A DNA stretch of 64,000 bases. Source: Dehalococcoidia bacterium. GTDB lineage: Bacteria > Chloroflexota > Dehalococcoidia > Lucifugimonadales > UBA3495. Position 1 is the stretch's first letter, and every line of letters starts with the position of its first letter. Below the pieces are notes generated by a model. That model worked only from the letters and a program-made list of their open reading frames with translations, made no database searches and was not told the DNA's origin. Positions 3,614 to 50,272 of the stretch are shown piece after piece. Both the position numbers and the translations under genes were made by a program. The stretch lies in the NCBI GenBank assembly GCA_965204805.1, contig OZ242013.1, positions 3,059,598 through 3,123,597 of the forward strand. The letters are read 5' to 3'.

Positions 3614-3648
3614 TCGAGGAGTTGCTCACAAGTGATTCCTGGTCTGAC

Positions 3649-3677
3649 CGTCATTCCCGCTTTCGCGGGAATGACGG
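3649..3677. repeat. REP-B copy (palindrome, spurious peptide IPAFAGMT)
   Basis: cgtcattcccgctttcgcgggaatgacgg, a perfect hairpin between two convergent genes. Confidence 0.85.
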
Positions 3678-3701
3678 GGCAGGCGTATGCTCTGTGGCCG
3701 G

Positions 3702-9277: not shown

Positions 9278-9399
9278 TCCTTACGTCTCCGGGCTACCCG
9301 GAGGATTCAACTCTGTAGTTGCCAAACCAGCCGGTCGCGCCATTGGGCGGGTCGGCTGGTTTGCTTAATCTCCAACTTTCCGAAAGAGCGTTTCTGCTT

Positions 9400-9864
9400 A
9401 TGCGAGCCTTGGTTCAGCGGGTTGCCCAAGCCTCGGTGGAAATCGACGAAACGGAGGTCGCCCGCATCGGGCGCGGCCTGCTGATACTGCTGGGAGTAGC
9501 TGCCGACGATGAGGAAGCCGACGCCGAATACCTGGTGCCCAAGATAGCCAACCTGCGCATCTTTGCCGACGACACCAACCGCTTCAACCTGTCGGCCCTG
9601 GATGTAGGGGCCGAGGCGCTGGTGGTGAGCCAGTTTACCCTCTACGCCGACACTCGCCGGGGACGCCGCCCCGACTTCACCCGCGCCGCGCCCCCCGAAC
9701 TGGCCGAGCGGCTCTACGAGCATACCGTGGCCCTCCTCCGCGACACCGGACTGACCGTGGCCACAGGTCAGTTCCAAGCCTATATGCAGGTAAAGTCGCA
9801 AAATGACGGCCCGGTCACCATCCTGCTGGACAGCGCGGACCGCCAGCGTTCCCGTTCATCCTGA
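9400..9864 (+). CDS. dtd: D-aminoacyl-tRNA deacylase
   Basis: ATG at 9400. MRALVQRV...GLLILLGV...NLSALDVGAEALVVSQFTLYADTRRGRRPDF...NDGPVTILLDS is the canonical Dtd pattern. The stop codon lies inside repeat C1. Confidence 0.9.
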   Translation: MRALVQRVAQASVEIDETEVARIGRGLLILLGVAADDEEADAEYLVPKIANLRIFADDTNRFNLSALDVGAEALVVSQFTLYADTRRGRRPDFTRAAPPELAERLYEHTVALLRDTGLTVATGQFQAYMQVKSQNDGPVTILLDSADRQRSRSS

Positions 9865-9883
9865 GCTTGTCGAAGGATGAACG
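9853..9883 (-). repeat. REP-C copy (core CCTTCGACAAGCTCAGG, reverse orientation) in a hairpin
   Basis: cgttcatcct-gagcttgtcga-aggatgaacg. Contains the dtd stop codon (9862..9864). Confidence 0.8.
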
Positions 9884-13522: not shown

Positions 13523-14845
13523 CTAATTCGGTTGGCCTTGCAGCGACCACGGCCCGGCCCGGTCAATCGTCACGTTGACCATCTCTCCCAGCCGGTTCCC
13601 GTCGTCCTCTGATATAGGGAAGAACACCAGCTTGTTGGAGCGGGTGCGGCCCTGCCACTTGCCCTTGTTCCTGGCCTCGACCAGTACCTCGAACTCGCTG
13701 CCCACCAGTTCGGCGTTGATCTCGGTGAGGATGCTTTGTTGCAGGGCGTCCACCCGCTCGCGGCGGCTGGTCTTCTCCGCCTGGGGTATGTCGTCTTGCA
13801 TAGTGCGGTCTGCGATGGTGCCGGGGCGGGTGGAGTAGGCGGCGCAATGCACCTTGTCCATCCGCAGTTGCTCCACCAGCTCCAGGGTGCGCTGGAACTG
13901 AGTTTCTGTCTCGCCGGGGAATCCCACGATGATGTCGGTGCTGAGCGACGCGCCCGGCACGGTGTCGCGGATTTCCTCCACCAGCGCGATGTAGTCGGCG
14001 CGGGTATAGTTGCGGCGCATCCGGGCCAGCACTTCGTCGTCTCCGGCCTGCACCGGCAGGTTGATGTGCTCGCACACCTTGGGCAATTCGGCCACGGCTT
14101 CGATGATGTTGCGGCTCATATAGTTGGGGTGCGAGGTCAGGAAGCGTATGCGCTCAAGGCCGTCAACATCGTTCAGCCGCGTCAGCAGCGTTGCCAGGTC
14201 GGGCCTTTCACCCCTTCTCCCCCCGGGGGAAGGTTGGGATGGGGGCGCGGGCAAATCGTGGCCGTAGGCGTCCACCGTCTGCCCCAGCACCGTGACTTCC
14301 CGCACGCCCCGCGACACCAGCAACTCCACCTCTCGCGCCACCTCGTCCACCGGACGGCTTACCTGCCGGCCTCGGCGGTAGGGGATGATGCAGAAGGTGC
14401 ACATCAGGTCGCAGCCGTGGATGATGGGGACGTGGCAGGCGACGTCGGGACGGGTGGGGGCCAGCGCGCCGACGCAGCCCTCCCAGTCCAGGCTCAGCCG
14501 TTCGCCCACCAGGTCCAGCAGCGGCTCGAACTGCTGCGGGCGCATGAACACGTCAACGTAGGGGAAGCGGCGGGCCAGTTGGTCCGACTTCGGCCCCACC
14601 ATGCAGCCCATCAGGGCGATAACCCGGTCCGGATCCTGCTTCTTCAGCCTCGACACCGCGCCGAGGTTGCCGACCACCTTGTCTTCCGCCGACTGCCGCA
14701 CCACGCAGGAGTTCAGGACCACTACGTCGGCATCTTTGGCGTTCCCGGCCGACTCCAGGCCCAATTGCTCCAGCGCGGAGGCGAGGCGCTCCGAGTCGGC
14801 GGTGTTCATTTGACAGCCGATAGTCCAGATGTGATAGCTGTTCAT
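13523..14845 (-). CDS. miaB: tRNA (N6-isopentenyl-A37)-C2-methylthiotransferase
   Basis: ATG at 14845 (MNSYHIWTIGCQMNTADSE). Radical-SAM CDLMCTFCIIP, followed by a TRAM domain. The track's N-terminal extension crosses a MITE and is rejected. Contains an in-frame REP-A copy (PSQPSPGGRRGE). Confidence 0.9.
   Translation of the reverse strand: MNSYHIWTIGCQMNTADSERLASALEQLGLESAGNAKDADVVVLNSCVVRQSAEDKVVGNLGAVSRLKKQDPDRVIALMGCMVGPKSDQLARRFPYVDVFMRPQQFEPLLDLVGERLSLDWEGCVGALAPTRPDVACHVPIIHGCDLMCTFCIIPYRRGRQVSRPVDEVAREVELLVSRGVREVTVLGQTVDAYGHDLPAPPSQPSPGGRRGERPDLATLLTRLNDVDGLERIRFLTSHPNYMSRNIIEAVAELPKVCEHINLPVQAGDDEVLARMRRNYTRADYIALVEEIRDTVPGASLSTDIIVGFPGETETQFQRTLELVEQLRMDKVHCAAYSTRPGTIADRTMQDDIPQAEKTSRRERVDALQQSILTEINAELVGSEFEVLVEARNKGKWQGRTRSNKLVFFPISEDDGNRLGEMVNVTIDRAGPWSLQGQPN
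14206..14245. repeat. REP-A copy inside miaB, in frame
   Basis: tttcaccccttctccccccgggggaaggttgggatggggg, translated on the minus strand as part of HDLPAPPSQPSPGGRRGERPDL. Confidence 0.8.
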
Positions 14846-15017: not shown

Positions 15018-15119
15018 AATTGTCTGAACTCTGATTTATTTGATTTGATGATTGGCATGATTTTTGATCCGAGAATCACGGCAATCAAATGAATCAGGCG
15101 AATCACAGTTCAGACAATT
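15018..15119. mobile_element. MITE-like element, family D (19-bp terminal inverted repeats)
   Basis: Left end aattgtctgaactctgatt; right end aatcacagttcagacaatt (one mismatch as inverted repeats). A second copy lies at 50163..50272. Confidence 0.7.
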
Positions 15120-18915: not shown

Positions 18916-19022
18916 GGCAGGACCTCTGGCGGTGCGGTTGTGTCGGTCAGGGGAAATCGCCCTAAGTCTAGCCTTGCCCCCGGCTATTGTCCAGAATGGG
19001 CGTCAGTTTCAGTTCGGCACAA

Positions 19023-19120
19023 CCGTCATTCCTGCGAAGGCAGGAATCCAGAGCTTCTTTGCCAATGTTGTCCTGGGGGGAACAAAGTCCACTGGATTCC
19101 TGCCTTCGCCGGAATGACGG
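19023..19120. repeat. REP-B composite (two inverted REP-B units about 45 nt apart; MITE-like)
   Basis: ccgtcattcctgcgaaggcaggaatcc ... ggattcctgccttcgccggaatgacgg, upstream of the tRNA pair. Confidence 0.75.
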
Positions 19121-19210
19121 GTTTGTCAGCCTCAAAATCGTAAACCGCCATTGCCCTGGCGCTGGGCTGTTGTTGGGGGCGGGGGCGCGTGCTATCATTT
19201 ATTACAGAGT

Positions 19211-19285
19211 GCCCCTGTAGCTCAGCGGATAGAGTGCCGGCCTCCGGAGCCGGAGACGAGAGTTCGATCCTCTCCGGGGGTACCA
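19211..19285 (+). tRNA. tRNA-Arg (anticodon CCG), CCA encoded
   Basis: Folded by hand. Acceptor GCCCCTG/CGGGGGT (two G-U pairs), D arm GCTC/GAGT, anticodon stem CCGGC/GCCGG with loop CTCCGGA, T arm GAGAG-TTCGATC-CTCTC, then ACCA. Confidence 0.85.
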
Positions 19286-19327
19286 CCGCAACCCTTTCCT
19301 CTCCAAACTTTCCCCTCGCGTTTTATC

Positions 19328-19402
19328 CGGGGCGTGGCCCAGCGGCAGGGCGCCTGGTTTGGGACCAGGAGGTCGGCAGTTCAAATCTGCCCGCCCCGAC
19401 CA
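19328..19402 (+). tRNA. tRNA-Pro (anticodon TGG), CCA encoded
   Basis: Acceptor CGGGGCG/CGCCCCG, D arm GCCC/GGGC, anticodon stem CCTGG/CCAGG with loop TTTGGGA, T arm GGCAG-TTCAAAT-CTGCC, then ACCA. Confidence 0.9.
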
Positions 19403-23399: not shown

Positions 23400-25256
23400 G
23401 TGGGGTTCAGAAGACTCGGGTATGTCAAGGCGATAATTCCGCTCATCCTGGCGCTGGCGTTGGCTGCCATAGTCTCCTGCGGCGGGGCGGCTGAAGAGGA
23501 AGCAGAACCCACTGCAGCGCCCGCGGCCCCGTCGGCTACGACGGCTCCGGCGGCCACTACAGCCCCTGCGGCCACCACAGCTCCGGCGGCAACGGCAGCT
23601 CCGGCGGCTACCGTAGCGCCCGCCGCGACGGCAGCGCCCGCGGCCACCGCTGTGCCGCAACCGGCGGCTACCACCGCACCCGCGCCTGCCGCATCGCACA
23701 CGCCCACCGGCGAGTTGCGGGTGGCGATGGCTACCTTCGGCAACGAGCGGTGGCTTGTCGGCGCATCGGCTGGCGCGGAGGACACTGCCTTCCACTCCAT
23801 CCTTGAGAACCTGCTTACCCGCGATCCGAATACCGGGGACAATATCGGCGAACTGGCGGAGTCGTGGGAGGTACGGGATGGCGGTTTGGTCTGGGAGTTC
23901 CGGCTGCGCGAAGGCCCGCAGTGGCATAACGGAGAAGGCCCGGTGACCTCCTCAGACGTACAGTTCTCCTTCGAACGGTATGCTGCCGAGGACAGCGCCA
24001 ACTCGCGGGCCGGCGTGTTCCGCAAAATTGGCGGCTATGAGACGCCCGACCCGCAGACCATCATTGTCAATTTCAACGAACCGGAAATTCTTTTCGGCGG
24101 CGACCTGAATTCAGGCATCCCCGGAACCCAGTACATCTACCCCAAGGATTACAACGAGCGGGTCGGAGACGAAGTTGCCGACGTGGAACCCATCGCCTCC
24201 GGCCCCTACAAGCTGGTGAACCATGACCGCGGCGTGCGGATGGACTTCGAGGCGGTGCAGGGGCACTGGAAGCTGACCCCGGCCTTCGCCAACATGAGCT
24301 TCCTCAAGACGGTGGAGAATTCCACCCGTGTGGCCCAGCTACGTGCAGGAACTGTGGACATCATTGACATTGGCGTGGACTTCGCCAACGAATTGAAAGC
24401 TGCCAATGTTGAGATCAAGTCCGTGCCGGGATTCGCCACGGTAGGAATCACCCTGGGCGGCCAGTGGGATACCAAGGAAACCTACGATCCGTCGGTGCCG
24501 TGGGCGCAGCCTGACAAGGAGCGCGCCTACAAGGTGCGCAAGGCCTTGGCCCTCGCCATTGACAAGGATACCGTGGTTGACGTGGCGTTGGGCGGCCTGG
24601 GCCGGGCAAATGTTTCCCTGCCCTTCTACTTCCAGGGCGAGCCCTGGACTCTCCCGGAGTTTGAGCCCATCGGATACGATCCGGAAGAGGCAAAGCGGTT
24701 GCTGGCTGAAGCTGGACACGATGGATGCTGGGAGTTCACCATCAACCTGGTGCCGTGGCCTGGCCGCGCCTTCCTTCCAGCCGTAGGCGAAGCTGTGGCA
24801 ACGCAGTGGGAAGCCAACCTGGGCTGCAAGATTACCCGCCGGCCTCTTGACCGGGCGGTGTTCGCCACCGACTTCCGGGAGCGGACCTATCCTGGCGTGG
24901 CCGTACCCTATGCCATGCCCTTTGTGGGGCGGGAACCCTGGCAGTTGCTGCGGCTCAACTCCCACATTGACGGCACGGCAATGCTTGCCTATGAGGACCG
25001 GACATTCAGCGATTACCTGGACCAGTTGGGCGCCACGGCGGACTTCGACGAACGGGTGGTACTGTTACAGGAGATGGGCCGGCACATGTATTCCCAACTG
25101 CCGCGCATTGAAATCGCCGAGGTGTTCGGCCTGTACGGCATAGGCGAGAATGTGAAGACATGGGCCACCGCCCCGGGCAACGGCTTCATTCACAACACCG
25201 CCTATGTCAACCTGAATTGGGCCCCGCCGGGACAGCCGGTGACCCTGGCAGAGTAG
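23400..25256 (+). CDS. ABC transporter substrate-binding lipoprotein (family 5, peptide/nickel type)
   Basis: Lipobox LAAIVSCGG, then an Ala/Pro/Thr linker of about 70 aa (DNA about 23513-23697), then an SBP_bac_5-like body. AGGGAGG SD. Confidence 0.85.
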   Translation: MGFRRLGYVKAIIPLILALALAAIVSCGGAAEEEAEPTAAPAAPSATTAPAATTAPAATTAPAATAAPAATVAPAATAAPAATAVPQPAATTAPAPAASHTPTGELRVAMATFGNERWLVGASAGAEDTAFHSILENLLTRDPNTGDNIGELAESWEVRDGGLVWEFRLREGPQWHNGEGPVTSSDVQFSFERYAAEDSANSRAGVFRKIGGYETPDPQTIIVNFNEPEILFGGDLNSGIPGTQYIYPKDYNERVGDEVADVEPIASGPYKLVNHDRGVRMDFEAVQGHWKLTPAFANMSFLKTVENSTRVAQLRAGTVDIIDIGVDFANELKAANVEIKSVPGFATVGITLGGQWDTKETYDPSVPWAQPDKERAYKVRKALALAIDKDTVVDVALGGLGRANVSLPFYFQGEPWTLPEFEPIGYDPEEAKRLLAEAGHDGCWEFTINLVPWPGRAFLPAVGEAVATQWEANLGCKITRRPLDRAVFATDFRERTYPGVAVPYAMPFVGREPWQLLRLNSHIDGTAMLAYEDRTFSDYLDQLGATADFDERVVLLQEMGRHMYSQLPRIEIAEVFGLYGIGENVKTWATAPGNGFIHNTAYVNLNWAPPGQPVTLAE

Positions 25257-27497: not shown

Positions 27498-28016
27498 ATG
27501 GGTATGGGTACGGAAGCCATCGTGGGGCTCGCTGCCGCCTGGGTCACCCTCTTTGGAGTGGTAGCGGGCGCGTTTGTTGGGTTGCTGGGAGTAATCAAGT
27601 CGGAAAACCGGACCCTTCTGGGGTTTTTCCAGTCGGAAAACCAAGCCCTGCGGGCGGAAGTCAAGGGCGAAGTCAACGCTTTCAGGACGGAAGTGCGCGA
27701 GGAAATCAGGGGCGCCCGTGAGGAAATGCGCGAGGAAATCAGGGGCACCCGCGAGGAAATCAGGGGTGTCCGCGAGGAAATGCGCGAGGACAACGCCCGC
27801 CTCCGCGAGGAAATGCGCGAAGAAAACGCCCGCCTCCGCGAGGAAATGCGCGAAGAAAACGCCCGCCTCCGCGAGGACAATGCCCGCCTCAGGCAGGAAT
27901 TGGTGGCGGAAATCCGCGAGGGGAACCAACGAATACTGGATGCTCTGTATAATCACCGCCACGACCCGAATACCGGCGCGACGGTCATCTACCCGCCGCA
28001 GGCCGCCGACGACTGA
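27498..28016 (+). CDS. N-terminally membrane-anchored coiled-coil protein built from tandem repeats
   Basis: 172 aa. TM helix IVGLAAAWVTLFGVVAGAFVGLLGV, then EIRGxREEMREEIRG and three REEMREENARL units. The antisense ORFs are open only because of the repeats. Confidence 0.55.
   Translation: MGMGTEAIVGLAAAWVTLFGVVAGAFVGLLGVIKSENRTLLGFFQSENQALRAEVKGEVNAFRTEVREEIRGAREEMREEIRGTREEIRGVREEMREDNARLREEMREENARLREEMREENARLREDNARLRQELVAEIREGNQRILDALYNHRHDPNTGATVIYPPQAADD
27771..27890 (+). repeat. 33-bp tandem repeat x3 plus a 21-bp partial unit (coding)
   Basis: Units 27804-27836 and 27837-27869 are identical (cgcgaggaaatgcgcgaagaaaacgcccgcctc). Unit 27771-27803 differs at 2 positions. Shorter 21-bp related units lie upstream, from about 27693. 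Confidence 0.9.
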
Positions 28017-32658: not shown

Positions 32659-33507
32659 ATGACGCAGAATCAGGAACAATCCGGCGGCACGTTAGCCCAG
32701 CAGATGTTCGGCCCGCAGGCTGGGGTCTACGCCCAGAGCAAGGTGCATATCAGCGACGACAGCCTGGAATCGGTGCAAAAGCTGACCAACCCGGCCCTTC
32801 GACAAGCTCAGGGTGACGGGCGGCAAACCCAGGACGATGGGGAAGTTGTGACGCCCTACCGGTGGGCCGTGGACATCGGCACCGGGGCGGGATTCACCGC
32901 CTTCGCCATGGCCGAGGTATCGGAGCGCGTAATAGCCAGCGACATCACCCAGCCGATGCTGCGGCAGGCCGGGCGCATCAGTGGTGAGCGGGGGCTGCCC
33001 AACGTCGGGCTGGTGCAGAACGCCGCCGAGTCGCTGCCCTTCGCCGACGGCAGCCTCGACCTGATAACCTGCCGAAAGGCCGCCCATCACTTCCGCGACT
33101 TCGAGGCGGCCCTGGACGAGGCGCAACGCGCGCTGCACCCCGGCGGCTCGCTGGTGATGGCCGACACCGTAGCCCCGGAGGATGACGACATCGCCCGGTG
33201 GCAGAACGAAATCGAGCTGCGCCGAGACTTCAGCCACGTTGAGGACCGCAAGATTTCCGTCATCCGGCGGATGCTGGCCGACCGTGGCTTCGAGGTGGTG
33301 GGAAGCGAAGACGAGCGGGTATACCTGTGGTTCAACGACTGGGTGATGCGAACAGGGGTGCCGGAAGACGAGGTTGCCGCCCTGCGCCGTGAGTTCCAGG
33401 AGGGGGCGCCGGAAATCAAGGAGGCGTTCCAGGTGGGCGAACCGGAGGAGGACGGGGATTTTCTGTTCTCGTTCCCAGTGTGGGTGTTCCGGGCATTGAA
33501 GAGGTGA
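32659..33507 (+). CDS. class I SAM-dependent methyltransferase
   Basis: ATG at 32659 after GGAG. VDIGTGAGFTA (motif I) and LDLITCRKAAHHF. Contains an in-frame REP-C copy (ALRQAQGDG). Confidence 0.8.
   Translation: MTQNQEQSGGTLAQQMFGPQAGVYAQSKVHISDDSLESVQKLTNPALRQAQGDGRQTQDDGEVVTPYRWAVDIGTGAGFTAFAMAEVSERVIASDITQPMLRQAGRISGERGLPNVGLVQNAAESLPFADGSLDLITCRKAAHHFRDFEAALDEAQRALHPGGSLVMADTVAPEDDDIARWQNEIELRRDFSHVEDRKISVIRRMLADRGFEVVGSEDERVYLWFNDWVMRTGVPEDEVAALRREFQEGAPEIKEAFQVGEPEEDGDFLFSFPVWVFRALKR
32795..32813 (+). repeat. REP-C core inside the methyltransferase gene, in frame
   Basis: cccttcgacaagctcaggg, read as LRQAQG. Confidence 0.8.
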
Positions 33508-35712: not shown

Positions 35713-35726
35713 TCGTGGCCCGCCAT

Positions 35727-35745
35727 CCTTCGACCGGCTCAGGAC
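35727..35745 (+). repeat. REP-C variant
   Basis: ccttcgaccggctcaggac, between rplI and dnaB. Confidence 0.6.
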
Positions 35746-35758
35746 GAACGGTTTCGCC

Positions 35759-37142: not shown

Positions 37143-37174
37143 TTCGTGATTCCCGCTTTCGCGGGAATCACGAA
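37143..37174. repeat. REP-B copy
   Basis: ttcgtgattcccgctttcgcgggaatcacgaa, between dnaB and the DnaD-like gene. Confidence 0.85.
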
Positions 37175-37186
37175 ACAGAGACAGCC

Positions 37187-37981
37187 ATGGCCTTCGACGG
37201 TTTCCCCCGCGACACGCTCTACACGCCCACCCCCGACCCGTTCTTCGGCCCGCTGCTGGAGGAAGTCCACGACATCGTGGAGCTGAAGGTGACGTTGCGG
37301 GGCCTGTGGCTGCTGCACCACAAGCGGCAGAGCGTGCGGGCCGTCTCACTGGACGAATTTCTGACAGACACGACCCTGCTGCGGGGGTTGCGTCCGTCGA
37401 CTGGCGCAAGCCCTTCGACAAGCTCAGGACAAACGAGGCCGGAACCCGGAGACGCCGCGGAGGAAATCCGGCGCGGGCTGCGCCTAGCGGTTCGCCGGGG
37501 CGTCTTCCTGGCCCACGAAGCCGGGCCGGGAAAAGTGTATTTCGCGCTCAACAATGAGGCCGGACGCCGGGCCATTGCCCGGCTGAAGGAGACGGGCGCC
37601 AATCCCAGCGACGGCGCACCAGGGGCTGACGAAGCCCCGGCGGGAGTGCGGGAGCGTCCCAACATCTTCGCCCTGTATGAAGACACCATCGGGATGCTGT
37701 CGCCCATCGTTGCCGAGCGGCTCAAGGAAGCCGAAGAACGCTACCCGCCGGGCTGGATTAGGGAAGCATTCGAGATAGCAGCGCTGGAAAACAAGCGCAA
37801 CTGGCAATACATTGACGCCATCCTGAAGCGCTGGGGTTCGGAGGGCAAGGGCGGATGGAAGGGGGGAAGCAATGACGATGGAAAGCCTGGGCGACATTCT
37901 CCGCAGAATCAGCGCCAGAAGTATAGCCAGGACTACCAACGGCGGCGGCGCAGCTCACCCGCCCGAAACAGCCGAAGCTGA
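37187..37981 (+). CDS. DnaD-domain replication protein (3' end uncertain)
   Basis: NIFALYEDTIGMLSPIVAERLKEAEERYPPGWIREAFEIAALENKRNWQYIDAILKRW is a DnaD C-terminal domain. As written it overlaps the next gene by 110 nt (see finding on the G6 run at 37861-37866). Contains an in-frame REP-C copy. Confidence 0.7.
   Translation: MAFDGFPRDTLYTPTPDPFFGPLLEEVHDIVELKVTLRGLWLLHHKRQSVRAVSLDEFLTDTTLLRGLRPSTGASPSTSSGQTRPEPGDAAEEIRRGLRLAVRRGVFLAHEAGPGKVYFALNNEAGRRAIARLKETGANPSDGAPGADEAPAGVRERPNIFALYEDTIGMLSPIVAERLKEAEERYPPGWIREAFEIAALENKRNWQYIDAILKRWGSEGKGGWKGGSNDDGKPGRHSPQNQRQKYSQDYQRRRRSSPARNSRS
37411..37430 (+). repeat. REP-C core inside the DnaD-like gene, in frame
   Basis: cccttcgacaagctcaggac, read as PSTSSGQ. 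Confidence 0.8.
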
Positions 37982-46688: not shown

Positions 46689-49259
46689 TTAGCGCAACTG
46701 CGCCACCGTCACCCCCTCGCCGCCGGACCCTTCGCCGTCGCTGGCGGCGGACACCAGCGGGTGGTCGGACAGGTACTCGCGGATGGCGCGGCGCAGCGCT
46801 CCCGTCCCCTTGCCGTGGATGATGCGGAGCAACGATGCGCCATCAAGGGCCGCGTCGTTGAGCGCCGTGTCTACGCGGGCGACGGCTTCGTCCACCCGCA
46901 GACCGCGCAGGTCCATCTCCGGGTCGGGACGGCGCGGCGCGGGCGTCCGATTGGCCGCCCGGTCGAGGTAGACACCCTGACGCGCCGCCGTCGGATGACC
47001 TTCGGCGAGACTCTGCAACTGATAGACGGGAATCTTGGCCCGCATGGTTCCCAGCAGCACCTCCACCCGCTGCGCTTGCGCCGGATTCCCGCCTTCGCGG
47101 GAAGAGCGGGAATGACGGACGGGTTCGGGCGGCGTGATGACCTCTACCGGCTGGCTGATGCCCCGCACGTACACTCGGTCGCCGCTCTTGAGCCGCTCCT
47201 GCCAGGGCGCCCGCCTGATTTCGATGGGCTGCCAGTTGGCGGTGTCCAGCTCGCGCTGCACCTCGCGCAGATCGCGCTGGCTCTCCCGCAGGTTCTCCCC
47301 GCTCTCCCGTCCGGCGGAAGGTGCGCGGATATGCCCGGCGGCAGGCTGTAGAGCGGCGGCGCTGGCCGCCAACTCCATGGACCGCTCCGCCCGTTGCAGG
47401 CGGTCTACGATGTCGGCAGTCCGCAGTTGCAACTCGCGGCGGGCCTCCTCGACCAGCTCGGTCTTGGTGGATTCCACTGACGCCAGTTGTTCCTCAAGCT
47501 GCTGTTGCAGCCTCACGGCGGCCAGCCGCGACGACTCTGCCTCCTCTTTCAACTGCTCCACGGTGCGGCGTTCCTGTTGCAGTTCCCGCAGCAGCGTCTC
47601 GGTGGCCTGCTCCACCGGCGACACCCCGGCGCTGGCGTCCTCGATAATTTCCTGGGGCAGCCCCAGCCGAGCCGCGATGGTCAAGGCGTAGCTGCGGCCC
47701 GGCAGCCCGACGGTTAACTGGTAGGTGGGCGCCAGCGTCACCGGGTCCAGGTCAACGCTGGCGTTCAGCATTCCCGGGTGTTCCTGCACCGTGCGGGCCA
47801 CGCCGCGCTGGTGAGTGGTGCCGACCAGGAACACGCCCATGCGCTGGAAGTGGCGCAGCACCGCGCTGGCCAGCGCTGCCCCTTCCTCCGGGTCGGTGCT
47901 GGTGCCTAATTCGTCCACCAGCACCAGCGAGCGGCCAGTGGCACGGCGCATAATGTCCAGCAGGTTGGTGATGTGGGAGCTGAACGTCGAAAGCGACTGC
48001 TGGATGCTCTGCTGGTCGCCAATGTCGGCATAGATGCCGTCGAACCCCGGAAAGCGGGCATCATCAGCTGGGATATGCAGTCCGGCATGAGCCATCATCG
48101 CCAGTAGCCCGACGGTCTTCAGCGCCACCGTCTTGCCCCCAGCGTTGGGGCCAGTGATGAGCAGCACCCCGCTCTCCGAGTCGAGCGACAGGCTAATAGG
48201 CACCACGTCGCCGCCCTTCGACTGGCTCAGGAGCAGGGGATGCCGGGCGCGGCTCAATCGCAGGCGTCGCGGCGCAGGCGCATCGTACTGCTCCACGTCA
48301 ACAATTCCCTCTCCCTCTGGGAGAGGGTTAGGGTGAGGGCCTCCCCCCACATCCTCAATAACCGGCGGCGTGGCCCGCAGCGCCGACGAGTAGCGCGCTT
48401 TCGCCACGTCCAGGTCCAGCCGGGCCACGATGTCCAGCGCCAGCAGCAGGTCCTCGCCGGTGTCGCCGACGCGGTTGGTCAGGTGGCGCAGCACCCGCTC
48501 CACCTCGCGCTCCTCGGCCAGGCGAGCCTCGCGCCAGCGGTTGCCCATGTCCACCGCCGCCATCGGCTCCACGAACACCGTCGCGCCGCTGTCGGAAACG
48601 TCGTGGACGATACCCGGCACACGGTAGCGCATCTCGGTCTTGATGAGCAGCACCATACGCCCGTTGCGCTGGGTGATGATGGGCTCCTGCACCACCTCTG
48701 ACCGCTGGAACCGCCGCAGGTTGCGCTCCATTATTTCGTTCAGGCGGTTCTGCGCCTGCCGCGACTCGGCCCGCAGCCGGCCTAGCAGCGGGCTGGCGTA
48801 GTCCAGAACCTCCCCGGCCGGGCTGATGGCGGCTCCGATTTCGCTGTCCAGGTGCCCCAGCTCCGGGATGTTGCTGGCGAGGCTCGACAGCAGGGGCAGG
48901 TCGTATCCTGAGCTTGTCGAAGGGCGGCTGAGTTCGTCGCGGTCGTAGCGGGCAGCGCGGGCAAAGGTCCGGACGGCGTATAGCTCCTCGCCGCGCAGCA
49001 GACCGCCCAGCATGGCGCGGTGAATCAGCTCGGTGATGTCGTTCTCCGGCCCGAACTCCAGCGAGCCGCCGCCGTCAATATAGCGGCGTGTCTCTGTGGT
49101 CTCCTGCTGCCGCGTCGCCACCTCCAGCAGGTCCTCCGACGGCTCCAGCGCCGTCACCTTCTCCCGCCCCAGCGACGTGCGGCAGTACGACGCCACCTGC
49201 GCCAGCACCTGGTCAAATTCCAGCAACCGCCCGGCCTGCTCAAATCCGCCCAGAGTCAT
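46689..49259 (-). CDS. mutS2: endonuclease MutS2 (MutS-family ATPase with C-terminal Smr domain)
   Basis: 856 aa. ITGPNAGGKTVALKTVGL, LVLVDELGTSTDP and Smr DLRGLRVDEAV...IIHGKGTGALR. Carries in-frame copies of REP-A, REP-B and REP-C. Confidence 0.9.
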   Translation of the reverse strand: MTLGGFEQAGRLLEFDQVLAQVASYCRTSLGREKVTALEPSEDLLEVATRQQETTETRRYIDGGGSLEFGPENDITELIHRAMLGGLLRGEELYAVRTFARAARYDRDELSRPSTSSGYDLPLLSSLASNIPELGHLDSEIGAAISPAGEVLDYASPLLGRLRAESRQAQNRLNEIMERNLRRFQRSEVVQEPIITQRNGRMVLLIKTEMRYRVPGIVHDVSDSGATVFVEPMAAVDMGNRWREARLAEEREVERVLRHLTNRVGDTGEDLLLALDIVARLDLDVAKARYSSALRATPPVIEDVGGGPHPNPLPEGEGIVDVEQYDAPAPRRLRLSRARHPLLLSQSKGGDVVPISLSLDSESGVLLITGPNAGGKTVALKTVGLLAMMAHAGLHIPADDARFPGFDGIYADIGDQQSIQQSLSTFSSHITNLLDIMRRATGRSLVLVDELGTSTDPEEGAALASAVLRHFQRMGVFLVGTTHQRGVARTVQEHPGMLNASVDLDPVTLAPTYQLTVGLPGRSYALTIAARLGLPQEIIEDASAGVSPVEQATETLLRELQQERRTVEQLKEEAESSRLAAVRLQQQLEEQLASVESTKTELVEEARRELQLRTADIVDRLQRAERSMELAASAAALQPAAGHIRAPSAGRESGENLRESQRDLREVQRELDTANWQPIEIRRAPWQERLKSGDRVYVRGISQPVEVITPPEPVRHSRSSREGGNPAQAQRVEVLLGTMRAKIPVYQLQSLAEGHPTAARQGVYLDRAANRTPAPRRPDPEMDLRGLRVDEAVARVDTALNDAALDGASLLRIIHGKGTGALRRAIREYLSDHPLVSAASDGEGSGGEGVTVAQLR
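47083..47118. repeat. REP-B copy inside mutS2, in frame
   Basis: ggattcccgccttcgcgggaagagcgggaatgacgg, read on the minus strand as VRHSRSSREGGNP between VEVITPPEP and VEVLLGTMRAKIP. Confidence 0.8.
48305..48340 (-). repeat. REP-A copy inside mutS2, in frame
   Basis: ttccctctccctctgggagagggttagggtgagggc, read on the minus strand as PHPNPLPEGEGI. Confidence 0.85.
48907..48924 (-). repeat. REP-C core inside mutS2, in frame
   Basis: cctgagcttgtcgaaggg (reverse complement of the 18-mer core), read as PSTSSG. Confidence 0.8.
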
Positions 49260-49306
49260 CCAACATCTCCATATTTATATGGTTATTTAACGCAGAGAAC
49301 TCCCTG

Positions 49307-49345
49307 TTCCCTCCCCCTGAGGGGGAGGGTTAGGGTGGGGGTGAA
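49307..49345 (-). repeat. REP-A copy (consensus)
   Basis: ttccctccccctgagggggagggttagggtgggggtgaa, between the VLRF1-like gene and mutS2. Confidence 0.9.
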
Positions 49346-49359
49346 ACCCTGACAGAAAA

Positions 49360-50130
49360 CTATGCGTTGAAATCAATGGTCCAAACCCGGCTTTCGGTCA
49401 GCATCTCGGCGACCTGCGGCAGGGTATCGCGTTTTGGATCGCGTATGTTGAGCCGCCGCTTCAGCGTGATGGGCTGGAGTGAGTCCAGCGCCGGGCACTC
49501 CTTCAATAAACCGTTGAGAGTGAACCGCTCGCCGCCCAGAACCAAGTAGTCCAGTTGCGCCGTAGGAGGCATCAGGTGGGCGCGGGTTTCCTCGCACACC
49601 TTGTCGTACAGCCGCTTGATCTGCCCGTCACGCACCCGCGTATACCGCAACTGTGATGTGCCGCCCGCGTGATGCCTGCCCTTCACATACCGCGAGTCCG
49701 TCTTGGAGTCCAGTAGCTCCCCGCCGCGAAATACCGCCACCGAGAACCGCCCCAGCCGCACCAGCACCACGCCCACGGTAACGTCGGCGTCCAGGATGTT
49801 CCGCAGCGGCTGATCGTCCCAATCCGTGGACAGATAGGTTTCCGTAACGGGAAAGGGCGGAGCAATCAGCAGCCCGCGCTCGCCAGCGCGCAGGCCCACC
49901 AATCCGCAGCCGTCGCGCAACGCGCCTTCCCCAAACTCGGCCAGGGGAGTTGCCCATCCTGTAGCGGCCATCGCTGCCGGGTCTGGGCTATGGCCGGGAG
50001 CAAGGTACAGCGACGACGCTCCCTCCCCGGAGTTCACACCCAGGGCATTCAGCATCCGCCGCAGCCGGGCCGCGGAAACCGTTTCCCCGGCCATCGTGTT
50101 TCTGACGCTCATACATAACGATTGTATCAT
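49360..50130 (-). CDS. VLRF1-family (Vms1/ANKZF1-like, eRF1-fold) peptidyl-tRNA hydrolase homolog
   Basis: 256 aa. VGVVLVRLGRFSVAVFRGGELLDSKTDSRYVKGRHHAGGTSQLRYTRVRDGQ matches, from memory, the VLRF1 core (RxGxFAxxxF...K[ST]...RY.V[RK]...GGxSQ with catalytic Gln). Start codon uncertain (M1/M7/M13). Confidence 0.6.
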   Translation of the reverse strand: MIQSLCMSVRNTMAGETVSAARLRRMLNALGVNSGEGASSLYLAPGHSPDPAAMAATGWATPLAEFGEGALRDGCGLVGLRAGERGLLIAPPFPVTETYLSTDWDDQPLRNILDADVTVGVVLVRLGRFSVAVFRGGELLDSKTDSRYVKGRHHAGGTSQLRYTRVRDGQIKRLYDKVCEETRAHLMPPTAQLDYLVLGGERFTLNGLLKECPALDSLQPITLKRRLNIRDPKRDTLPQVAEMLTESRVWTIDFNA

Positions 50131-50162: not shown

Positions 50163-50272
50163 CATCTGAACTGTGATTAGTTTGATTAAGGGATTTCTCT
50201 GATTTCGTCGCCTTTGGAATACACTAGCAACCATGGCAATCATATAATCAAACGAATCACAGTTCAGACAAT
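50163..50272. mobile_element. MITE-like element, family D
   Basis: catctgaactgtgattag ... cgaatcacagttcagacaat. Same termini as 15018..15119. Confidence 0.7.

Follow-up and report, generated by a model that had tools for sequence, protein, structure and literature searches.

How does a gene with an intact reading frame come to carry copies of several dispersed DNA repeats inside its coding sequence (CDS)? The question is raised by mutS2, a gene of DNA repair and ribosome rescue, in an uncultured Dehalococcoidia bacterium (assembly GCA_965204805.1, contig OZ242013.1), which we analyzed within a stretch of 64,000 nucleotides, here called the window (contig positions 3,059,598 to 3,123,597). The gene occupies window positions 46689–49259 on the reverse strand and encodes 856 amino acids without interruption. 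An earlier note on this DNA had described the mutS2 open reading frame (ORF) as uninterrupted and as holding in-frame copies of three repeat families, REP-A, REP-B and REP-C, and had proposed frequent insertion followed by selection for frame-preserving events. The comparison with orthologues supports that interpretation. We found four in-frame repeat-derived segments from three dispersed families, each of them inserted, in certain lineages only, into a loop or linker that already existed, and we consider it very likely that the three families insert at large and that the surviving copies sit in frame in tolerant loops as neutral passengers.

The repeat-derived segments of mutS2

The ORF is intact, and the three copies listed in the earlier note were all found again to within 1–2 nt of where it had placed them, REP-A being about 2 nt off. 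Its count of three families also stood, but a fourth copy, a degenerate REP-C at 48214–48231, had been overlooked. Searching the three repeat patterns in 100 dinucleotide-preserving shuffles each gave 0 matches. In the encoded protein, the Pfam domains MutS_V and Smr span residues 367–544 and 783–856, respectively, and the sequence aligns with the solved MutS2 of Bacillus subtilis (7QV3, 8QPP, 8R55) at E of about 1e-132. The four insert sites are referred to below as A to D, and repeat copies were counted with nhmmer profiles built from the window copies.

Site A (48301–48346, reverse strand; nhmmer E = 4e-13) lies in the linker before the ATPase domain and is read as GPHPNPLPEGEGI. It contains the REP-A 34-mer CCCTCTCCCTCTGGGAGAGGGTTAGGGTGAGGGC at 48307–48340, and REP-A (48305–48343) is translated as PHPNPLPEGEGI, residues 308–319, from codons at 48303–48338. 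The motif has the triplex-type layout CCCTCTCCC-TCT-GGGAGAGGG-TTA-GGGTGAGGG; the family consensus is CCCTC(T/C)CCC, a 3-nt loop, GGG(A/G)GAGGG, TTA and GGGTG(A/G)GGG, that is, a perfect 9-bp hairpin and then a G-rich third block. About 20 copies of REP-A occur in the window. The reference copy of the family (49304–49349, forward strand; E = 9e-14), with the 9-bp hairpin, is intergenic, between mutS2 and the neighboring acVLRF1 gene.

Site B (47081–47118, reverse strand) falls in the hairpin loop of the KOW domain and is read as VRHSRSSREGGNP, residues 714–726. REP-B has the general form CGTC-ATTCCCGC-(GAAG/TTTC)-GCGGGAAT plus a short tail; at site B this becomes CGTC, the ATTCCCGC stem, a GAAG loop, GCGGGAAT and CCG, the copy consisting of one unit with a 9-nt internal duplication and the stem retained. 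Five copies were counted in the window, among them an intergenic reference copy (CGTCATTCCCGCTTTCGCGGGAATGACG) at 3649–3676, to which no strand is assigned, and copies at 19007–19051, 19092–19136 and 37145–37172. The intergenic copy, taken as 3640–3685, folds into a hairpin of −33.7 kcal/mol (z = −6.4). The inverted REP-B pair at 19007–19136 stands directly upstream of a tRNA-Arg(CCG)/tRNA-Pro(TGG) pair at 19211–19402.

Sites C and D both carry REP-C, which has a conserved core of 17–18 nt, CCTGAGCTTGTCGAAGG. The 18-nt core at site C (48907–48924, reverse strand) encodes PSTSSG, residues 113–118, which in the N-terminal domain fall in a loop joining two helices; the same 18-mer recurs exactly at 32795–32812 and 37411–37428, and with one base changed at 9860–9877. 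Site D (48214–48231, reverse strand; E = 0.003) holds the degenerate core CCTGAGCCAGTCGAAGGG in the orientation opposite to that of site C and encodes LSQSKG. Here the protein reads LSQSKGGD between ARHPLL and VVPISL, from the DNA CTGAGCCAGTCGAAGGGC, a REP-C core with two mismatches.

The window contains five strong and two weak copies of REP-C. In intergenic copies the core is enclosed, as the loop, by a hairpin stem that varies from copy to copy (10 bp at 9853–9881), and the mutS2 copies consist of the core alone and do not fold (z = +0.4). The copies at 9853–9881, 32778–32833 and 35722–35755 keep the loop sequence and differ in their flanking stems, e.g. GTTCATCC/GGATGAAC; a constant loop with differing stems suggests a structured DNA or RNA element and not a plain sequence repeat. 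A literature search with the translated motifs and the REP-C DNA strings found no description of REP-C. Its readings PFDKLRA, SLSKG, ELVEG and LRQAQG are, we presume, common in hypothetical proteins of many phyla. A scan of the window at Rfam gathering thresholds returned two tRNAs only and no RNA family over any of the repeats.

Filled and empty alleles among orthologues

The earlier note had suggested aligning orthologues, so as to see whether each segment is a lineage-specific insertion coextensive with a repeat. We aligned 120 orthologous proteins (79–93% identical) and the DNA of 74 loci (50–90% identical), the relatives being metagenome-assembled genomes of Dehalococcoidia/SAR202-type Chloroflexota. 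All sites are polymorphic for presence and absence among the 120 orthologues, and copy number, frame, orientation and nesting vary as well; in distant orthologues the loops at the insert sites are short and do not vary in length. The closest allele pairs differ by blocks coextensive with the repeats. Loci L071 and L072 (95% nucleotide identity) differ by a 33-nt REP-C block, L073 and L074 (94%) by two blocks, one of REP-C (15 nt) and one of REP-B (18 nt), and the window differs from L073 by a 9-nt duplication within REP-B.

The segments accordingly pass the comparison that had been proposed for them. Residues kept at these positions in orthologues free of the repeats had been named as the observation that would speak for chance resemblance; we found instead that where the flanks hold no REP-A the segments are absent too. 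Inserts in mutS2 track repeat abundance in the flanking DNA: per 10 kb of flank, the close clade has 0.61 copies of REP-A and 0.84 of REP-B, and it has 10 REP-A inside mutS2, versus none there in the clade at 57–66% identity, whose 172 kb of flank is likewise free of REP-A.

Site A has a constant length of 24 residues in all orthologues of 57–66% identity, e.g. AAINAVAPWVSDQEVADRHLKLVR, versus 28–62 residues in the clade of the window and 93 in the more distant orthologue L064 (50% identical). Its REP-A occurs in two reading frames, giving PHPNPLPEGEG or ALTPTLSQRERE, and relatives also carry REP-B in the opposite orientation (EIPAFAGMT) or REP-C (PSTSSG) there. In several orthologues REP-C is nested at one fixed position within REP-A, as in L008, which reads RPHS[LDKLGTSS]NPLPGGEG, and L019 has a 24-nt triplication at this site.

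Site C is five residues long (SRKED) in most relatives, ten in the window and 16–22 where two or three 18-nt units are present; the net gain over the empty allele is 15 nt in the window and 33 nt in L072. The ancestral state of site D is three residues (SGD/TGK), and about 35 close relatives carry a REP-C-like segment. Other lineages have REP-C in the other orientation at site D, AGDEGFSGPSTSSG, with three units in orthologue P0083, and the presence of both orientations implies independent hits on one site.

At site B, distant orthologues have a six-residue turn (TPPDEQ), close relatives with the empty allele have 12 residues and carriers have 18–36. The window has gained 18 nt relative to the empty allele, and a 9-nt duplication relative to L073. 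Empty alleles read GACCCGTCGGGCAGC, with CGTC at the junction. We also observed that the 12-residue empty loop of close relatives (e.g. L002, L074) reads TPPDPSGSAAQA and contains CCGTCGGGCAGC; speculatively, it may be what is left of an earlier CGTC REP that was inserted here and has since decayed.

We estimated the minimum number of state changes on a neighbor-joining tree of 117 orthologues, obtaining 5 for site B, 13 for site C and 35 for site A. Shuffling the tips gave means of 18 and 33 for sites B and C, respectively. As the tree was built on a single gene, recombination could explain part of the patchiness.

Two further length differences in mutS2 lie away from the repeats. A fifth indel hot spot, the Ala-rich linker after the coiled coil (residues about 630–645, window about 47330–47360), varies by 6 and 12 nt among close relatives and has no similarity to the repeat families; its length changes probably reflect simple slippage. 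Orthologues P0080, P0081 and P0087 are without the Smr domain, owing to frameshifts downstream of the KOW domain and away from the repeat sites, which are probably sequencing errors.

Placement of the inserts in the protein

Alignment to the solved B. subtilis MutS2 puts sites A and C at gaps or loops. At site A, residues 306–332 of the query have no counterpart, B. subtilis residue 300 being followed by residue 302, so that the 24-residue linker of the distant orthologues is matched by about one residue; at the site C loop, the B. subtilis protein exceeds the empty allele by four residues. AlphaFold gave a poor full-length model (mean predicted local distance difference test score, pLDDT, 46.8) because the alignment was shallow, all sequences being more than 79% identical, and we used only its secondary structure, with caution. 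A model of residues 661–856 (pLDDT 64.3) matched the KOW and Smr chains of B. subtilis MutS2 in Foldseek. In this model, residues 715–725 at site B form a loop with pLDDT below 50 between strands at 705–709 and 731–736. The REP-B peptide had been thought to split a continuous pair of KOW strands; it does appear as a low-confidence loop between two predicted strands, but no strand is split, because the loop was already present and the insert enlarged an existing turn. On alignment and models together, the inserts are placed in loops and linkers, with a predicted surface position.

Copies in other genes of the window

According to the earlier note, the three families are otherwise intergenic in the window. 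This does not hold, as REP-A lies in frame in miaB and REP-C in frame in a gene for an S-adenosylmethionine (SAM)-dependent methyltransferase, so that in-frame insertion is not specific to mutS2. The miaB copy (14211–14247, reverse strand), in the radical-SAM domain of a CDS at about 13523–14845 (reverse strand), is read as APPSQPSPGGRRGE; most orthologues read HDLPDEDGGRPDL at this loop, and another lineage carries REP-A in the opposite orientation, read as NPLPLRGRVGVGVNF. In the methyltransferase gene (CDS 32659–33507, forward strand, 282 residues), the REP-C core at 32795–32812 (forward strand) encodes ALRQAQG. Its empty alleles read TGPDFLEGTTPY and have 269 residues, and carriers have 275–296 residues with tandem expansions. 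Another REP-C copy (9860–9877, forward strand), with a 10-bp stem around the conserved loop, overlaps the 3' end of the D-Tyr-tRNA deacylase gene (CDS 9319–9864). The TGA within the core is the stop codon of this gene, and the last residues of the protein are therefore repeat-derived. Overall, just five of the roughly 30 strong repeat copies lie inside genes, in a window of which about 83% is ORF.

Directly upstream of mutS2 is an acVLRF1/baeRF family-10/eRF1-like release factor gene (49360–50130, reverse strand; Pfam E = 1e-28), a pairing kept in four relatives. MutS2 senses collided ribosomes, and the two genes therefore look like a ribosome quality-control pair. A fourth repeat family, AT-rich, MITE-like (miniature inverted-repeat transposable element) and about 100–110 nt long, has terminal inverted repeats ATTGTCTGAACTGTGATT...AATCACAGTTCAGACAAT and copies at 15019–15118, upstream of miaB, and at 50163–50272, upstream of the acVLRF1–mutS2 pair. 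Two intragenic tandem repeats are unrelated to the REP families: one at 23509–23709 (ORF 23400–25256) with units of 9/18 nt in a GC-rich stretch, the other at 27663–27898 (ORF 27498–28016) with units of 21/33 nt and recurring CGCGAGGAAAT.

Selection, mobility and alternative explanations

Purifying selection on the gene is strong: dN/dS against relatives is 0.07–0.12, alike in carriers and non-carriers. We propose the following course of events. The lineage (Dehalococcoidia, SAR202-like) harbors three abundant, short, structure-forming families: the triplex/hairpin REP-A, the CGTC-type REP-B and REP-C with its 17–18-nt core. Copies would land throughout the genome, genes included, and purifying selection would remove those that spoil the reading frame, introduce a stop or upset the fold. 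Stop-free reading is available in 3 of 6 frames for REP-A, 4–5 of 6 for REP-B and 5 of 6 for REP-C. Survivors would be in-frame copies in surface loops and linkers that tolerate changes of length, which in MutS2 would be the N-terminal helix–helix loop, the linker ahead of the ATPase domain, the turn that follows ARHPLL and the loop of the KOW hairpin. Once resident, copies would change by replication slippage in whole codons (9, 18, 21 or 24 nt), receive other families as nested insertions, erode through point mutations and get lost. The encoded peptides, rich in Pro, Gly, Ser, Arg and Glu, are most likely neutral, disordered passengers, and selection would act on the insertions as a filter.

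Several observations weigh against this picture. The 26-nt REP-B core is identical in the window, L073 and L047 at a synonymous divergence (dS) in mutS2 of 0.34–0.47, which simple old neutral residence does not predict; it points to independent insertions of recent date, to conversion by copies elsewhere or to a constraint on the hairpin. No target-site duplications or direct repeats were seen at the closest filled/empty junctions, where no clean junction could be defined. Each filled site has a few substituted boundary bases, so that the apparent insertion could partly be templated patch repair. The structural placement depends on two weak models (pLDDT 47 and 64) and on an alignment with the B. 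subtilis sequence, and translation of the segments is predicted from the reading frame; a junction-spanning tryptic peptide of this MutS2 would cover GGGPHPNPLPEGEGIVDVEQYDAPAPR. Finally, repeated hits on the same loops could mean targeting instead of selection.

Targeting, in which the insertion machinery prefers DNA motifs or structures at the sites (e.g. CGTC), is compatible with the filter just described, and we regard it as possible if somewhat doubtful. IS200/IS605-type enzymes insert beside a short motif, and targeting would account for the insertions that arose independently, in either orientation, at site D and in the miaB loop, for the CGTC at the junction of the empty site B alleles GACCCGTCGGGCAGC and for the fixed position of REP-C within REP-A in several orthologues. 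However, CGTC has just four nucleotides and is common in DNA of 63% GC, and site A hosts REP-A, REP-B and REP-C; different families at one loop fit a filter of permissive sites better than sequence targeting. Nor was a transposase or target-site duplication found, within 64 kb of genome whose ORFs were not all scanned.

A broader proposal is that the three families, conserved across phyla, are copied recurrently into a few sites by one shared mechanism based on DNA structure, which could be fork stalling induced by hairpins or triplexes, followed by templated repair. To our knowledge, no transposase is known for any of the three families. We consider this proposal unlikely; if it were true, the clade, with its many near-complete genomes and its wealth of alleles that are filled or empty, nested, or present in either orientation, would be a natural system for studying how CGTC REPs and triplex motifs spread.

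That the segments instead tune MutS2, in recombination suppression or ribosome rescue, for example by creating hyper-recombining or mutator variants, is highly improbable in our judgment. Di Nocera et al. (2013, PMC3733652) speculated that REPs residing in repair genes create such variants, and their survey found intragenic REPs biased to replication and repair genes; four inserts in one gene, and REP cores better conserved than synonymous sites, would agree with a tuning role. Against this, the same DNA is read in differing frames (PHPNPLPEGEG versus ALTPTLSQRERE; PSTSSG, LSQSKG and ALRQAQG), so that selection maintains no consistent peptide. Moreover, dN/dS is the same in close relatives with and without inserts, the peptides are of low complexity, and miaB and a methyltransferase gene have been struck as well.

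There is a very small chance that the segments are assembly artefacts or are removed after transcription or translation in the manner of introns or inteins. All data do come from metagenome-assembled genomes, but alleles are shared by many assemblies that different projects produced independently, and the segments, at 15–39 nt, match nothing in Rfam and show neither intein nor intron features. Readings as inteins, introns or MITEs were rejected on size and for want of diagnostic features. Coincidental resemblance, or derivation of the repeats from mutS2, for which no support was found, has next to no probability and is refuted by the absence of the segments from distant orthologues, the lack of matches in shuffled sequence and the presence of REP-A and REP-B also in E. 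coli, Rickettsia and Neisseria.

Comparison with known systems

The earlier note likened the segments to the Rickettsia palindromic elements (RPEs), and this likeness is borne out, as REP-B belongs to the same family as RPE-6. CGTC-1 REPs, which are the same as Rickettsia RPE-6 and Neisseria dRS3, consist of a CGTC tag, an 8-bp stem starting with AT, a 4-nt loop and a short tail (Di Nocera et al. 2013, PMC3733652). In REP-B we found the tag (CCGTC-ATTCCCGC... on the gene strand of mutS2, CGTCATTCCCGC in the intergenic copy at 3649) and the 8-bp stem ATTCCCGC/GCGGGAAT with complementary A/T in its first two positions and a 4-nt loop of GAAG, CTTC or TTTC. The unpaired tail, consensus CCA, was also present (GGAATCCAG at 19040–19051; GGAATCCGG, one base off, in mutS2), and the inverted pair 19007–19051/19092–19136, 82% complementary, forms a head-to-head dimer, the sole one in the window. 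Judged by these sequence features, REP-B is a CGTC-1 REP.

As with RPEs in general (Ogata et al. 2000), short palindromic repeats lie in frame in functional housekeeping genes, here at predicted loops that would tolerate them, and the mutS2 segments are likewise in-frame, lineage-specific insertions in a conserved functional gene. With RPE-6 the likeness extends to architecture and nearly to sequence: REP-B is read here as RHSREGGNP, versus CHSRESG(D/N)P for the copies in uvrC of R. conorii and in a tRNA methyltransferase gene, and the other frames, VIPAKAGI and IPAFAGMT, are found in the published table of intragenic copies (PMC3733652) as they are here. The hosts differ, ours being a GC-rich, free-living or symbiotic member of the Chloroflexota with a genome of about 4.7 Mb, and Rickettsia being reduced, AT-rich and intracellular. 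RPE-1 measures about 100–150 bp; the present inserts measure 15–39 nt, and several unrelated families share one gene and even one loop.

The in-frame behavior had been thought undescribed for GC-rich repeats, which is not the case: in-frame REPs were reported in the same survey, which found intragenic CGTC REPs in GC-rich bacteria, many of them in replication and repair genes, with no dedicated transposase known (PMC3733652). The survey did not find CGTC REPs in Chloroflexi, nor is mutS2 among its listed targets.

REP-A corresponds to the TMECO/PIT motif, an intrastrand triplex built from a pyrimidine block, a 3–5-nt loop, a complementary purine block, a TTA/CCG linker and a mirroring G-rich third block (PMC4666352). 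The order CCCTCTCCC-TCT-GGGAGAGGG-TTA-GGGTGAGGG agrees with Table 1 of that paper (Holder et al. 2015, PMC4666352). Its three 9-nt blocks and TTA linker recur unchanged in E. coli TMECO no. 17, from which the mutS2 copy departs only in the first loop and the last base. By sequence the assignment is clear; in our analysis only the Watson–Crick hairpin was folded, and the triplex is predicted. The motif was tied to local sequence instability, and its E. coli copies were 'always located intergenically' (PMC4666352), whereas the copies at 48301–48346 and 14211–14247 lie inside CDSs (mutS2, miaB); taken over the orthologues, copies in these genes are read in two frames and both orientations. We take the intergenic trait as descriptive, not defining.

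Like MITEs (e.g. the Coxiella QMITE, PMC5896051), which can give rise to in-frame fusions, overlap ORFs and add residues or supply stop codons, the three families are non-autonomous repeats. They measure 17–39 nt versus 150–400 bp, and the terminal inverted repeats of 15–30 bp and target-site duplications of MITEs were absent from all three. The nesting of one small repeat inside another has a parallel in cyanobacteria, whose nested small dispersed repeats were reportedly described by Elhai et al. in 2008.

The inserts mark loops of MutS2, MiaB and other proteins that tolerate insertion. In practice, such segments swell the 'hypervariable regions' of alignments and can lead both domain annotation and phylogeny astray. 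The dense polymorphism offers unusually clean filled/empty pairs, usable for working out how REPs move with no known transposase. In-frame REP insertion, notably in DNA-repair genes of GC-rich bacteria, was already known. What is new is the host lineage (Dehalococcoidia/SAR202-like), the translated copies of the triplex motif and REP-C, the four inserts from three families in one gene, the nesting, and the independent insertions in both orientations at the same loops. 'Selfish DNA inside proteins' of the Rickettsia type thus also occurs in GC-rich Chloroflexota with large genomes, and includes a triplex motif previously described only as intergenic.

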